A stretch of DNA of 63,383 bases, the filler included, from an uncultured Methanosarcinales archaeon (GTDB lineage: Archaea; Nanobdellota; Nanobdellia; Woesearchaeales; CAYXTQ01): NCBI GenBank assembly GCA_964608065.1. It is 3 parts of 3 records of this genome, joined end to end, with 100 filler letters (N's around TTAATTAATTAA, not from the genome) between each part and the next. Parts side by side here need not be neighbours in the genome. Positions count along the whole stretch, not along the records: positions 1 to 22,070 come from CAZSMA010000012.1; 2 more parts are not named here. One strand, written 5' to 3'. Below the pieces are notes generated by a model. That model ran no database searches. It saw nothing but the letters and a program-made list of their open reading frames with translations, and was not told the origin of the DNA. Shown one piece after another: positions 2,959 through 6,326 of this stretch. Numbering within the stretch: position 1 is the stretch's first letter; every line of letters starts with the position of its first letter. A program made the position numbers and the translations under genes.

Positions 2959-3858
2959 ATGAAAATATGGATTTTAGGAAAAAAAGAATATTTTAGTATA
3001 TCTAATTTTGCTAGGTTTGTTGAAGTAGCTAAGCAGATGAATATTAACCTTAATTTAGTCTCGCCAGATGATTTTGATTTGATAATAACAAAAGATGGTA
3101 AGAAGGACATACTTCATAATGGTAAAAGTGTTGATTTGCCAGACTGTCTAATTCCAAGAACAGGTTCAGGAACATCATACTTTGCTCTTGCAGTCATTAG
3201 ATACATGGAGAATAAAAGGGTTCTAGTGCTGAATTCAAGTTCAAGCATTGAAATGGCAAAAGATAAATTAGCAACTATACAGAACCTTGTTTCAAACAAT
3301 ATTCCTGTTCCTAAAACAATGTTAGCAAAGTTTCCATTAAATATCGATATGTTTGAAAAAGAATTTACATATCCTGTGATTGTTAAAACAGTTGTAGGCT
3401 CTTATGGCAAAGGTGTTTTTTTGTGCGAAAAAAGGGCAAAGTTACAGGATGTTATGGACCTGATTGAAATCTCAAAGGATTATAGGGTCAATGTTATACT
3501 CCAGGAGTTTGTTTCAGCAAGCAAGGGAAAAGATATAAGGGTTATTGTGATAGGTGGAAGGGCAATTGGAGCAATATTAAGGACAGCAAAAAAAGGAAAA
3601 TATAAGGCAAATTATTCTGCTGGTGGAAATGTGTATCCTTTTGAATTAAACCCTTCTGTTGAATGGCTTGCAGTTGAATCAGCTAGATTATTAAATCTTG
3701 AGATTGCTGGGGTGGATATACTCTTCGATGGCAGGAGATATAAAGTATGTGAGGTGAATTCAGCTCCAGGTTATGAAGGTTTTGAGAAAGCAACTAAAAT
3801 TAATGTTCCAGAATTAATATTTGAATATGCTAAATTAAGATTAGGTAAGAAATCATAG
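2959..3858 (+). CDS. RimK/LysX-family ATP-grasp peptide ligase
   Basis: DKL, PKT, VKTVVGSYGKGV, QEFV, DIRV, ANYSAGG, GVD and EVNSAPG motifs. Confidence 0.9.
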   Translation: MKIWILGKKEYFSISNFARFVEVAKQMNINLNLVSPDDFDLIITKDGKKDILHNGKSVDLPDCLIPRTGSGTSYFALAVIRYMENKRVLVLNSSSSIEMAKDKLATIQNLVSNNIPVPKTMLAKFPLNIDMFEKEFTYPVIVKTVVGSYGKGVFLCEKRAKLQDVMDLIEISKDYRVNVILQEFVSASKGKDIRVIVIGGRAIGAILRTAKKGKYKANYSAGGNVYPFELNPSVEWLAVESARLLNLEIAGVDILFDGRRYKVCEVNSAPGYEGFEKATKINVPELIFEYAKLRLGKKS

Positions 3859-5142
3859 TTCTCTTAAATAACCCCAGTTATGCAGCCTATCACTATCTTC
3901 ATACCATCTGTCACCAATGTCTTTTCTGTAGTACATATGTGGTATTGAAATATTTCTAATTCTAGTATAAACTTGATTTTGAGTCTGCCTCATTGTCTGG
4001 CCACAACCACAAACAATCAAGACCACCCCTGAAGTTCCAGTTACAACCCATTCATCATTAACTTTCTTTACATCTTCTATATGAATCCCTTCAGTAGGTT
4101 TTTTAAAGAATATAACAGAGTCCTTTGACTTAACATCAAATGTTTTTTTATCAGTAAAAGGAAATGGAGGAACAACAATCCTTACTCCAATTTGAAAACC
4201 ATTTTTTACTTTAAGCTTAGGAGTATTTCCAGCAGCAAGCTCATATAGGAATTCTCCAATTGGGATTAACATCCCCTCATGCTGTATATTTATAGTAGGA
4301 TATCCAAAACGAGAAGTCCATTCTAAAGGATAGATGCCACTTTTATTCACAATGCAATTAATATCAATATATCCTACATAATTTTCTTCTGCAATCTTAG
4401 GTTCCATTTTTTTTAATGTCTGATTAAATATCTTGTTAGGGCCAGACCAGAACATGGCTGTTCCCATCTCTCCTGTTGAAGGCCCTAAATTTCCAGGAAA
4501 TAATTTCTTATGCTCAAAATTAACATTTATTGGATAAATAAATTCTTTTCCATTAAAGAAAGCTCCTACAGCAACCTCTACACCTATAATTTTTTTTTGT
4601 AACTGAAACAAAGGAATTTTTTTTGCCCAAGCATTTTTATAGTCATTAAGAACTTGAATAACATCCCTGCCATCATCTTCTTCTCCAATAAAAAGAAGTC
4701 CTTTAATGTTTGCTGCCTGTCCGCTTGGTTTTATAACATACTTATTTGGGTTTTCTTTAATAAAATTTATTGCATCATCAAATGAAGTAAAGTCTCTGTA
4801 CGGAATAATAGCTATTCCTGCTTTTTTTAGCTCTTCTTGACCAAAAGCTCTGTCATCTTCTAATTTATCTGTATAGGGAGTGCCCCCAATCACAAATTTT
4901 CCTTGGTCTCTAAGCTTTTTAGCTTCTGTCCCTTGTCCAAGAACATCATCAAAAACTATTACATCAGCCCAATCAACTTCTGCTTTCCAATCCTCTACTT
5001 TTGGAACAAAACCATCTGTTACTTCCTTCTCTTCCTTTTCCTTTATATAATATTTAACTTCATGACCTTCTTTAACAATTTGCCATGCAATATCCCCAAT
5101 AAGACCATCCCATGATACAAAAAGAAACTTTTTTGGCTCCAT
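3853..5142 (-). CDS. PurD-related ATP-grasp amide ligase (non-canonical N-terminus)
   Basis: LEDDRAFG, VIKPSG, EHKKLFPGNLGPSTGEMG and EWTSRFGYP resemble PurD, but the GxGGREH motif is absent. Confidence 0.75.
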   Translation of the reverse strand: MEPKKFLFVSWDGLIGDIAWQIVKEGHEVKYYIKEKEEKEVTDGFVPKVEDWKAEVDWADVIVFDDVLGQGTEAKKLRDQGKFVIGGTPYTDKLEDDRAFGQEELKKAGIAIIPYRDFTSFDDAINFIKENPNKYVIKPSGQAANIKGLLFIGEEDDGRDVIQVLNDYKNAWAKKIPLFQLQKKIIGVEVAVGAFFNGKEFIYPINVNFEHKKLFPGNLGPSTGEMGTAMFWSGPNKIFNQTLKKMEPKIAEENYVGYIDINCIVNKSGIYPLEWTSRFGYPTINIQHEGMLIPIGEFLYELAAGNTPKLKVKNGFQIGVRIVVPPFPFTDKKTFDVKSKDSVIFFKKPTEGIHIEDVKKVNDEWVVTGTSGVVLIVCGCGQTMRQTQNQVYTRIRNISIPHMYYRKDIGDRWYEDSDRLHNWGYLREL

Positions 5143-5195: not shown

Positions 5196-5360
5196 TTAGT
5201 ATTGATATGAGGTAATTTTTGTTTTGCTTTCTGATACATTCCATTTATTAGGGGCACATTTTTTGCAAATAAGTTCAAAACCTCTAGAGGTTTGAGTATA
5301 CCTCACTTCTTCAATCGGACACTTTTTCCTGCATTTGCAGCACATATATTGCATTTCCAT
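5196..5360 (-). CDS. 54-aa zinc-finger microprotein
   Basis: Manual translation MEMQYMCCKCRKKCPIEEVRYTQTSRGFELICKKCAPNKWNVSESKTKITSYQY*; two CxxC pairs; below the ORF-track size range. Confidence 0.65.
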   Translation of the reverse strand: MEMQYMCCKCRKKCPIEEVRYTQTSRGFELICKKCAPNKWNVSESKTKITSYQY

Positions 5361-5422
5361 TTTTTTTTTTTTTTTTTTTATAAAAAAAAAATATTAAATA
5401 GATTCACTTACATATTGTGGAT

Positions 5423-5459
5423 GGAAGGAAGGAAAGGAAGGAAGAAAAAAAAAAAAAAA
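5423..5459 (-). terminator. Poly-U/pyrimidine terminator of the micropeptide operon
   Basis: On the minus strand, T15 followed by CTTCCTTCCTTTCCTTCC immediately after the TAA of the 23-aa ORF. Confidence 0.55.
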
Positions 5460-5531
5460 TTAATCCCACTTATCATTGTCATCATTATCGTCCTGGTCAT
5501 CATCATATTCAGAGTATCTATACTCATTCAT
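5460..5531 (-). CDS. 23-aa acidic micropeptide MNEYRYSEYDDDQDDNDDNDKWD
   Basis: ATG preceded by SD GGAGGT at normal spacing; followed by a poly-T tract. Confidence 0.55.
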   Translation of the reverse strand: MNEYRYSEYDDDQDDNDDNDKWD

Positions 5532-5547
5532 TTTAAACCTCCAAAGA

Positions 5548-5586
5548 TTATTGTTCGTTTTTATCAGCTTTCTTTTTCTTTGCCAT
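5548..5586 (-). CDS. 12-aa basic micropeptide MAKKKKADKNEQ
   Basis: ATG preceded by GAGGTGA that overlaps the upstream TGA stop. Confidence 0.5.
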   Translation of the reverse strand: MAKKKKADKNEQ

Positions 5587-5597
5587 ATTGAATCACC

Positions 5598-5681
5598 TCA
5601 TTGAGCATATTTTGCTGCTAATGCAGCTTCTTTCTTTGCTTTTTTCAATTCTTTTGATTTTTTTTTTTGTTCTTTCGTCAT
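5598..5681 (-). CDS. 27-aa basic helical micropeptide MTKEQKKKSKELKKAKKEAALAAKYAQ
   Basis: ATG preceded by SD GAGGT just after the stop of the upstream ORF. Confidence 0.55.
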   Translation of the reverse strand: MTKEQKKKSKELKKAKKEAALAAKYAQ

Positions 5682-5693
5682 TTTTAACCTCTA

Positions 5694-5876
5694 TCAATTT
5701 ACTTTTGGTTTATTTTTTAGCAATCTTTCAAGTTCTTGTTTATAAAGTTTTAACATAAATTGTTTATGTGATTTTAGATTATCATTTTTGATATTTGGCA
5801 GATCATATTCTACTGTCAATATATCCTTCCTAAGAACTTCTATCCTCCTATCAAACTGTTGATGCATCTTAATCAC
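5694..5876 (-). CDS. 57-60-aa helical-hairpin-like hypothetical protein
   Basis: ORF track; GTG start at 5876 or ATG at 5867 after GGTGTGA; TTATAAA upstream at about 5896-5902. Confidence 0.6.
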   Translation of the reverse strand: MIKMHQQFDRRIEVLRKDILTVEYDLPNIKNDNLKSHKQFMLKLYKQELERLLKNKPKVN

Positions 5877-5906
5877 ACCAGAAGTATTATTTTGCTTTAT
5901 AACCCC

Positions 5907-6326
5907 TTATTCCCTGTGTTCTAAACCTATTTTATTATCTATATCTACAGCAACTTTTTTAATGTCTTCTAAAGTATTTTCAATATCTTTCTTTATTTCT
6001 TCTATTGTTGTTAAGAGGCTGTTCATCTTTAATTCGTATTTTCCATCTAATTTAACTACTAATCCTGCTTTTACCAATCTTTTCAAATGATATATGACAG
6101 AACCTATAGTTGGTTTTACTAAATCTGTTAATGCATCACTTGTTAATCCTGTATCTCCCTTTGCAGATTTAATTAAAGCTTTTAATATCTTAAAAGCTGT
6201 TTTGTCTTGGTCTCTAGGAGTAATGAAACCAAGACTATTACACAGCCATTCAATATCACGATCATTATCTTTGTCTGTTGTTTCTTTTAGTTTCCTTATA
6301 GTAAATTGTTTGAGTACTTTAACCAT
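5907..6326 (-). CDS. Winged-helix (ArsR/TrmB-like) transcriptional regulator
   Basis: LTSDALTDLV-KPTIGSVIYHLKRLVKAGLV HTH plus wing and C-terminal coiled coil; leaderless TATA at about 6352-6360. Confidence 0.8.
   Translation of the reverse strand: MVKVLKQFTIRKLKETTDKDNDRDIEWLCNSLGFITPRDQDKTAFKILKALIKSAKGDTGLTSDALTDLVKPTIGSVIYHLKRLVKAGLVVKLDGKYELKMNSLLTTIEEIKKDIENTLEDIKKVAVDIDNKIGLEHRE

Follow-up and report, generated by a model that had tools for sequence, protein, structure and literature searches.

A small helical-hairpin gene and the putative charged micro-ORFs that follow it in an order of uncultured archaea

Molecular recognition by disordered proteins of extreme charge is known mainly from eukaryotic nuclei, where histone H1 and prothymosin-α form an oppositely charged disordered pair and where protamines are polycations. 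A related chemistry is found in the eukaryotic protein DSS1/Sem1, a short disordered acidic protein of about 70–90 residues with Trp, Phe and Tyr residues embedded in runs of Asp and Glu, which is thought to serve as nucleic-acid mimic and as glue of complexes, and in the K-boxes of eIF2-β, which bind the acidic/aromatic AA-boxes of eIF5 and eIF2B-ε. Here we describe a locus with similar ingredients on the minus strand, between positions 5902 and 5445, of a 63,383-nucleotide (nt) stretch of DNA, filler included (hereafter the window), from an uncultured groundwater archaeon of the Woesearchaeales, whose genome (G000) comprises 1.4 Mb in 131 contigs with 31% G+C and whose contig C12 provides window positions 1–22,070. 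The locus contains four small open reading frames (ORF1 to ORF4), which a sequence-only reading had described as hidden polycistronic operon of tiny charged peptides, each led by a Shine-Dalgarno (SD) or SD-like site. Comparison of genomes shows that the first of these frames is followed by SD-led, putatively translated charged micro-ORFs in at least 10 families of the order.

Four small frames on the minus strand

The frames follow each other closely. A TTATAAA element (5896–5902), which we infer to function as TATA box, is located 28 nt upstream of the start codon of ORF1, followed by the SD-like sequence GGTGTGAT (5872–5879), which ends 4 nt before the ATG and is complementary to the 3' end of the 16S ribosomal RNA (rRNA) of the same order. 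ORF1 (5694–5867) encodes a helical-hairpin protein of 57 residues if counted from this ATG and of 60 residues from a GTG at 5876. It is terminated by the consecutive codons TGA TAG, and ORF2 continues in the same frame, preceded by the SD GAGGT (5687–5691) with a spacer of 5 nt. ORF2 (5598–5681, also referred to as P2) encodes a basic micro-protein of 27 residues and its stop codon is overlapped by the SD of ORF3 (GAGGTGAT, 5592–5599, spacer of 5 nt), with the junction reading TGAGGTGAT. ORF3 (5548–5586) is a Lys-rich micro-ORF of 12 residues (MAKKKKADKNEQ), and ORF4 (5460–5531), led by the SD GGAGGT (5537–5542) at the same distance of 5 nt, encodes an acidic-aromatic micro-protein of 23 residues. 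The unit ends in a run of 15 Ts (5445–5459), likely an archaeal oligo-T terminator, which, like the TATA-like box, was read from the sequence. The predicted net charges are +5 for ORF1, +7 for ORF2, +3 for ORF3 and –9 for ORF4. All four frames, their SDs, the TATA-like box and the T-run were thus recovered as initially described. The sequence is confirmed, with the segment 5470–5876 being reproduced with no differences in an independent assembly of a public run and no variants found inside 5445–5902 in contigs from four DNA runs. In the public protein collection, ORF1 is present as called protein and ORF2 and ORF4 are absent (ORF3 is too short for a look-up), the small frames having been missed by gene callers. 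Upstream of the TATA-like box, a gene for a winged helix-turn-helix (wHTH) regulator of 139 residues (5907–6326, minus strand), which matches the Pfam models HTH_24 and HTH_20 and only faintly those of Lrs14 and Sta1, is probably either the first gene of the unit or located just upstream of it.

The 3' end of the 16S rRNA reads GGATCACCTCCT in two complete genomes of the same order, which defines AGGAGGTGATCC as SD consensus and identifies the motifs in the window as true complements, where the SDs of ORF2, ORF3 and ORF4 pair with 5, 8 and 6 bases, respectively. In dinucleotide-preserving shuffles of the region 5700–5440, with ORFs of at least 8 residues considered, a chain of at least three SD-led ORFs arose in only 1 of 5000 cases, and a scan of the 1.4 Mb genome identified the window as sole site with a run of three consecutive SD-led small ORFs, besides five pairs. 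A core SD precedes 151 of the 1008 long ORFs of this genome if the first ATG is taken as start, and SD use thus constitutes a minority mode of initiation. Two earlier suspicions, that three spaced SDs would hardly coincide by chance and that SD-led starts are uncommon elsewhere in this genome, are therefore both borne out. RNA structure in the region does not exceed that of shuffles (folding z = +0.44) and no Rfam family matched the window at gathering thresholds.

The same genome contains further SD-led charged micro-ORFs at other sites. On contig C8 (21521–21745), the Lys-rich MAKKKAKRKITKKKVTRKKTAKRKKRR (27 residues) and MAKKKKKEKKKKTTKKKGCCCC (22 residues, with four terminal Cys), each followed by long T-runs, are located just upstream of genes that by eye resemble an ArsR-like wHTH protein and a cysteine desulfurase. 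On contig C34 (14238–14411), the genome-wide scan located an SD-led, strongly acidic ORF of 57 residues (MVDADDVYDEEKRNEAVDDGEMSPEEAGF..).

The ORF1 family and its charged micro-ORFs

AlphaFold predicts ORF1 to fold into two antiparallel helices encompassing residues 2–25 and 29–52, with a predicted local distance difference test (pLDDT) score of 90.7. The earlier description of tiny charged peptides does not fit ORF1, a folded hairpin that anchors the module across families. An initial search with its sequence returned just two proteins from a collection of 5.8 billion. In the family alignment (A8, 24 sequences), the window protein aligns over its whole length with EYDL replacing EWDL, and it matches the resulting hidden Markov model (HMM) with E = 3e-20. 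The family core, which is shared by the window protein and found in proteins of 46–95 residues, reads L-[KR]-[KR]-x-I-x-x-L-E-W-D-L...I-x-N...L-x-x-L-x-x-E-L, with the conserved EWDL segment placed at the end of helix 1 beside the turn. With an HMM that included the copy of genome G186, matches at E ≤ 0.01 were obtained in 61 of the 401 genomes sampled from the order. Small-frame matches at E ≤ 1e-4 were found in 26 of the 401, counting the genome of the window and G132, and the number of carriers rises to about 28 once G340 and G175, whose copies look real, are added. The 12 genomes that were matched in a sample of the whole phylum all belong to the same order, and the predicted family is shown by these searches to be restricted to this DPANN-type order in the sampled genomes, its members carrying the labels 'Candidatus Woesearchaeota archaeon' and 'Nanoarchaeota archaeon'. 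Most homologues contain a GGTGAT-type SD motif 3–5 nt upstream of the ATG, and two loci (L092 and L098) repeat the layout of the window, with a TATA-like box, about 18 nt, GGTGAT, 4 nt and the ATG.

Searches for remote relatives were of little help. Foldseek with the ORF1 model returned generic helical hairpins, none at E ≤ 0.001, a PDB sequence search with the small proteins gave chance-level matches only, Pfam and NCBIfam hold no family for any of the small proteins, and the Protein Atlas offered no usable lead for ORF1 or for P2 of genome G005. Membership in the translin family (PF01997) was considered and rejected, as ORF1 resembles the last translin helix only (hhalign probability of 27.9% over 26 columns). 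Weak HMM matches of about 190 residues are true translins and were left out of the counts given above. We observed that the last helix of translin-family proteins of the order (..LRKKFDGIKYDL.K.E..; L116–L119, from G034, G032, G074 and G316) resembles helix 1 and the turn of ORF1.

We then scanned 23 further ORF1 loci, leaving out L085 and three long-frame matches, for SD-led micro-ORFs of 8–45 residues with at least 50% charged residues, located between –30 and +300 nt from the ORF1 stop codon. At least one such micro-ORF is present at 13 of the 23 loci, and at 14 with L090, which was missed by the scan because the matched frame contains an in-frame TGA. Their density amounts to 2.65 per kb after ORF1 compared to 0.025 per kb over the remaining parts of these loci with both strands counted, an about 100-fold difference, and the positive loci span 10 of the 14 families represented. 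The micro-ORFs, which are located on the same strand as ORF1, are of two kinds that occur alone or together: Lys-rich ones of 9–16 residues (MAKKK...) and Asp/Glu-rich ones of 12–36 residues containing Trp, Tyr or Phe. SD-led Lys-rich ORFs of this size follow ORF1 in L078, L087, L089, L091 and L093. Where both kinds are present (the window, L087, L089, L091 and L093), the Lys-rich peptide precedes the acidic one, and in L095, G005 and the G314 clade both parts are fused into a single peptide of 28–35 residues. The acidic peptides (alignment A10, n = 12) share an aromatic residue near position 4–6, runs of Asp and often a second aromatic residue near the C-terminus; a Pfam scan of nine of them at E ≤ 10 returned no family. 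Of 18 modules, 15 contain a run of at least five Ts no more than 45 nt downstream of their last micro-ORF. The window conforms to this organization, with ORF3 and ORF4 both starting within about 300 nt downstream of ORF1 and with the T15 run at its end. The originally proposed SD-coupled polycistronic operon of micro-proteins is thus not only supported but extended to loci well beyond the window, given the 14 further loci at which charged micro-ORFs follow ORF1.

The comparison of entire cassettes leads to a similar picture. A first DNA search (E ≤ 10) mostly returned low-complexity noise, with only the matches in G001 and G005 being syntenic. In G005 (69%), G021 (53%) and G065 (62%), the cassette or ORF1 is immediately preceded by an orthologue of the wHTH gene. 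In G001, which belongs to the same genus, a syntenic remnant of ORF1 is accompanied by an ORF2 homologue, a 27-residue peptide (MARGRKKK..) and an acidic peptide (..EEEWD), with the SDs kept, including the GGAGGT of ORF4, a T-run following and rps17e located downstream; the SD, ATG and first codons of ORF3 are conserved. In G005, which belongs to another family, four SD-led ORFs follow the wHTH orthologue, encoding a 22-residue Lys peptide, ORF2 (39 residues), a 35-residue peptide with Lys-rich start and acidic end and a 23-residue Asp peptide, the latter with 10 of 23 residues identical to ORF4 in an ungapped alignment by eye. The order in the G314 clade is ORF2 (39 residues), a Lys-then-Glu peptide of 28–34 residues (P3), MAKKAKEKKK, a hairpin, a basic ORF of 92 residues and rps17e; cassettes of this type were found in the clade itself and on seven metagenome contigs. 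In G186, ORF2 (24 residues) and an acidic 19-mer are followed by a T-run, the ORF1 homologue and a 10-residue Lys peptide. Relatives thus conserve SDs, start codons, frames and the charge pattern, with diverging spacers, which is what had been anticipated for genuine genes.

Several side observations concern the surroundings of these cassettes. A basic ORF of 86–94 residues (MAKMHTRIKRR.GLSTHL..), directly upstream of and overlapping rps17e, recurs in L052 (minus strand, 1456–1740), L054, L057–L059, L081 and L084; it has no Pfam family, and its variable columns number 14, 12 and 17 of 72 at the three codon positions. Judged by eye, the cassette of G005 (L053/L073) is flanked by a gyrase A gene on one side and an ScpB-like gene on the other, and an SMC-like gene of 1163 residues is present on the contig that carries the cassette of G314 (L072). 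The proximity to genes of chromosome organization in these two cases could be coincidence.

ORF2 defines a family of its own, consisting of stand-alone proteins of 24–39 residues that end in ..LKKAKKEAALAAKYQ with the motif LKKA[KR]K[EA]AA[LIM]AA[KR]YQ, which is also contained in the window protein (alignments A3 and A5; HMM E = 3.2e-9). When 1.84 billion representatives were searched with a profile, six matches were obtained at E ≤ 1e-3, all of them stand-alone proteins of 33–39 residues with the motif at the C-terminus, and a degenerate DNA pattern of the motif identified 3 genome contigs and 7 metagenome contigs and gave no match in viral contigs. Homologues are known from G005, G314, G186, G001 (frameshifted) and metagenome contigs, and their synteny excludes chance matches. 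The stop codon of ORF2 abuts or overlaps the next SD in the window, G001, G314, L054 and G186, and the arrangement is looser in G005. Taken together, these comparisons show ORF2 as a rarer and separately conserved, putative basic add-on to the module. On the RNA level, we noticed that the codons of its AALAA segment (5614–5627) form a GCUGC-N4-GCAGC hairpin and that the Ala codons GCT..GCA GC[AG] are kept in all compared homologues; the conserved choice of Ala codons could reflect a constraint on the RNA or plain codon bias.

Translation, proposed role and alternative explanations

If the small frames were translated, they should carry the marks of selection on protein sequence. In P3 of the G314 clade, the variable columns at the three codon positions amount to 6, 2 and 12 of 29, similar in distribution to the 11, 4 and 26 of 45 found for rps17e as control, and the indels measure 6, 9 and 15 nt. 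The 10-residue Lys ORF of the same clade (P5) varies at 5 of 33 columns and the spacer between P3 and P5 at 23 of 31, with a GGGGGT or GGAGGT SD being retained. For the acidic ORFs, two close pairs differ at 1, 1 and 6 of 30 positions, with one 3-nt indel, and at 0, 0 and 3 of 20 positions, compared to 9 of 33 and 16 of 81 positions in the flanking spacers. For the C-terminus of ORF2 in four lineages, the proportion of synonymous differences (pS, 0.50–0.74) is near saturation and far exceeds that of non-synonymous differences (pN, 0.07–0.19), with Leu being kept across TTG, CTG and CTT. The bias in codon position, the codon-sized indels and the fast-changing spacers that keep their SDs indicate that these frames are probably translated, and the synonymous-biased change that the initial proposal called for is found in P3, the acidic ORFs and ORF2.

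There are also observations that weigh against such a module. The coding strand consists of 0.61–0.77 purine, which inflates both SD-like motifs and codons for Lys, Glu and Asp. Four of the positive loci come from a single family, and kin are not independent. By the thresholds used, 9 of the 23 ORF1 loci have no micro-ORF, including all five of family f133, G065, G274 and two loci whose sequence is cut 67 and 108 nt after ORF1. In G001, the remnant of ORF1 is frameshifted by a 2-nt insertion, and the entire copy may thus be decaying. ORF2 is disrupted in 4 of 8 compared lineages (in G001 by a frameshift in an A15 run, in L054, L057 and L059 by a common frameshift, with the ATG also lost in L054) and is hence either dispensable or affected by assembly errors, and since its sequences were found in protein-level searches, their pN and pS values are subject to ascertainment bias. 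Finally, charges cancel in the window, where ORF2 to ORF4 carry +7, +3 and –9, and in G005, but the acidic peptide (–10 to –20) is alone or in excess at most of the remaining loci, which argues against a simple 1:1 pair of cation and anion and led us to reject stoichiometric neutralization of charge as general rule. With these points considered, we hold it to be very probable, judging from the comparison of sequences, that the four frames are real genes that form a conserved module. That the segment 5902–5445 would constitute the distal part of a small operon composed of the wHTH gene, ORF1 to ORF4 and T15, with all four small frames translated, appears somewhat better founded than not.

In the proposed mechanism, translation would be coupled through SDs adjacent to or overlapping with the stop codon of the frame before, which would yield all products jointly and in large amounts. 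As the most constant partner of ORF1, the acidic-aromatic peptide may act as disordered nucleic-acid mimic or as chaperone for basic surfaces, which would be provided by the co-encoded polylysine peptides and ORF2 if present, and otherwise by DNA- or RNA-binding proteins of the cell. The role of folded adaptor would fall to ORF1, and that of regulator to the wHTH protein at loci that encode one. By Rosetta-stone logic, the fused forms suggest that both types of charge work together. We tentatively propose, with rather low confidence, such an electrostatic partner set as the likeliest role, in which the hairpin protein would work with an acidic-aromatic peptide serving as mimic or chaperone, and at some loci also with polylysine peptides. 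A stronger version, which we consider doubtful, would see in the module a dedicated polyelectrolyte operon of this order. The ORF1 adaptor, DSS1- or prothymosin-like acidic-aromatic and H1- or protamine-like polylysine micro-proteins and the ORF2 helix would assemble into condensates or very tight complexes without order, by which basic nucleic-acid-binding proteins, for example histones, Alba or ribosomal proteins, would be buffered, chaperoned or displaced. Absence of histones was rejected as rationale for Lys-rich chromatin peptides, with histone-fold genes being present in all five carrier genomes.

Among the alternatives, the Lys-rich peptides and ORF2 might be small ribosome-associated proteins and the module part of the translation apparatus. 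The cassette is located directly upstream of rps17e in G001 and the G314 clade, and G065 shows the order wHTH, ORF1, basic ORF of the 92-residue type and rps17e, with rps3Ae nearby (the last two identified partly by eye). The strong SDs suggest high expression, and the large genes flanking ORF1 loci, although varying (LigT, diphthamide synthesis, CYTH, ParA, TruD, S3Ae and others), include with LigT, the diphthamide synthesis gene and TruD several that would fit such a role. However, rps17e of the window's genome resides on another contig with no cassette adjacent, the peptides are rich in Lys and Glu instead of Arg and poorly conserved in sequence, no ribosomal Pfam family matches and, unlike a ribosomal component, the module occurs sporadically, in about 7% of the sampled genomes. 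We thus regard this explanation as unlikely.

Generic, highly charged disordered protectants of the hydrophilin or 'Hero' type, which act without a specific partner, would also account for peptides that are extremely charged and of low complexity, that change quickly in sequence while keeping their composition, and that differ in number and order between loci. Such proteins would not be expected to show the tight and specific link to a single folded family that is found for ORF1, a conserved C-terminal motif as in ORF2 or the conserved aromatic positions of the acidic peptides, which makes this assignment quite improbable.

The genes surrounding the cassette had led to the suggestion that the peptides are substrates of neighbouring ATP-grasp ligases. 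Downstream of the cassette are an ORF encoding a zinc ribbon of 54 residues (5196–5360) and a PurD-like ATP-grasp gene (3853–5142, minus strand), and a RimK-family ligase gene (225 bits compared to a TIGR00768 cut-off of 143.4) is encoded on the other strand, 1.6 kb from the cassette. We note on the side that T10 and A20 tracts and a CT-rich, CTTCC-like stretch after the T15 run are found within 5361–5444, the tracts directly upstream of the ATG of the zinc-ribbon ORF, and that the PurD-like protein contains GARS_A and GARS_C domains only and scores 107 bits compared to a TIGR00877 cut-off of 288, and is thus probably not a true PurD. Both ligase-like genes are within 2.6 kb of the cassette, and the abundance of Lys, Asp and Glu in the peptides would be suited for glutamylation of the RimK type, for a LysW-like carrier or for graspetide-type cross-linking between Lys or Thr and Asp or Glu. 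Yet the linkage to ligase genes is not conserved: relatives of the RimK-like protein at about 30% in G005 and G314 are on other contigs, no match was found in G001, the 77% orthologue of the PurD-like protein in G314 is on a contig other than that of the cassette, and there is no ATP-grasp gene among 38 genes flanking the scanned ORF1 loci, so that no co-location of precursor and ATP-grasp gene across relatives, as characteristic for graspetides and other ribosomally synthesized and post-translationally modified peptides, was found. The model TIGR04187 matches the RimK-like protein with 26.5 bits at a cut-off of 350, and the micro-peptides are too short and variable for a test of leader-core motifs. 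LysW carriers end in an EDWGE-type motif. The C-termini of the homologues vary (..KWD, ..EWD, ..DDDD, ..DDY, ..KED), contrary to what is expected for substrates of RimK or for LysW/ArgW proteins, and ORF4 contains no Cys, no zinc ribbon and no EDWGE-type end. The locus is thus comparable to the RimK/S6 and LysX/LysW systems in the nearby RimK-family ligase and the acidic ORF4, but differs in its unconserved neighbourhood, its variable C-termini and the missing zinc ribbon. The proposal that the peptides are ATP-grasp substrates did not hold up, and we consider it very unlikely.

An equally slim chance is assigned to regulatory upstream ORFs or leader peptides that would control a downstream gene, for example as sensors of Lys or Asp codons. 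The runs of Lys (AAA/AAG) and Asp codons and the placement of the cassette 5' of rps17e, as seen in some genomes, would conform to this idea. It is contradicted by the T-runs directly after the last micro-ORF in most modules, by downstream genes that differ or are convergent, by the conservation of peptide sequences and not of codons alone, and by the folding score, which offers no alternative RNA structure. Even less probable is that the ORFs arose by chance in a non-coding region, be it an untranslated RNA rich in purines or the decayed remains of a once longer gene. The purine-rich strand and the frameshifts in G001 and part of the G314 clade could be invoked for this explanation, but it would leave unexplained the rarity of the SD-ORF chain among shuffles, the codon-periodic substitutions and codon-sized indels, the synonymous changes in ORF2 including its Leu codons and the exclusive occurrence of its relatives as stand-alone proteins of 33–39 residues, besides the missing Rfam match and inconspicuous folding of the region. 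The same small probability applies to a toxin-antitoxin-like pair of a toxic polycationic and a neutralizing polyanionic peptide, which opposite charges, coupled genes, sporadic distribution and varying genomic context might suggest, but which conflicts with the acidic peptide lacking a Lys-rich partner at most loci, the fusion of both partners in some peptides, the absence of a mobile-element context at the scanned loci and of the pattern from the viral contigs searched.

Comparison with known systems

Since no family in Pfam, NCBIfam, PDB or Rfam fits, we rate the module as lying outside the known kinds of system, its likenesses to described ones being compositional and pointing to a possible way of working, not to kinship. 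Among the titles and abstract openings returned from the literature, none mentions a hairpin protein with coupled micro-ORFs rich in Lys and in Asp. At the same level of detail, the small proteins of Haloferax and Methanosarcina are comparable in that genes of up to 50 codons were overlooked by annotation. Peptides of 9–36 residues are below the size limit of gene callers, and a module distributed over at least 10 families has for that reason stayed unannotated. In archaeal genomes with sparse SD use, chains of an SD and an ATG could thus be exploited as signal of hidden genes.

The closest parallels are the eukaryotic systems introduced above. With DSS1/Sem1, the acidic micro-proteins share their short length, the presumed disorder, the strong negative charge and the embedded aromatic residues. 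They differ in being archaeal, operon-encoded and SD-led, with only 12–36 residues and no Pfam match in the nine that were scanned. With H1/prothymosin-α and protamines, the module shares the co-occurrence of oppositely charged, putatively disordered peptides, and L093 encodes a Lys/Ala/Pro-rich peptide similar to an H1 tail; but the peptides of the module are ten times shorter, their charges are usually unbalanced and they are accompanied by the folded ORF1 as constant partner. The lysine run and the acidic-aromatic segment also recall the K-box/AA-box pair of eIF2-β and its partners, which are segments of large eukaryotic factors, whereas in the module they are found as separate or fused micro-proteins. 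The module would offer natural examples of polylysine and polyaspartate/aromatic micro-proteins that are encoded in an operon, coupled in translation and associated with a single small folded protein. If these peptides bind each other or proteins of chromatin or the ribosome, disordered recognition by extreme charge would also be used by minimal symbiotic archaea, and should the doubtful polyelectrolyte operon prove true, the eukaryotic systems of the H1/prothymosin-α or DSS1 type would have a first gene-linked counterpart in prokaryotes, built from peptides of only 9–36 residues.

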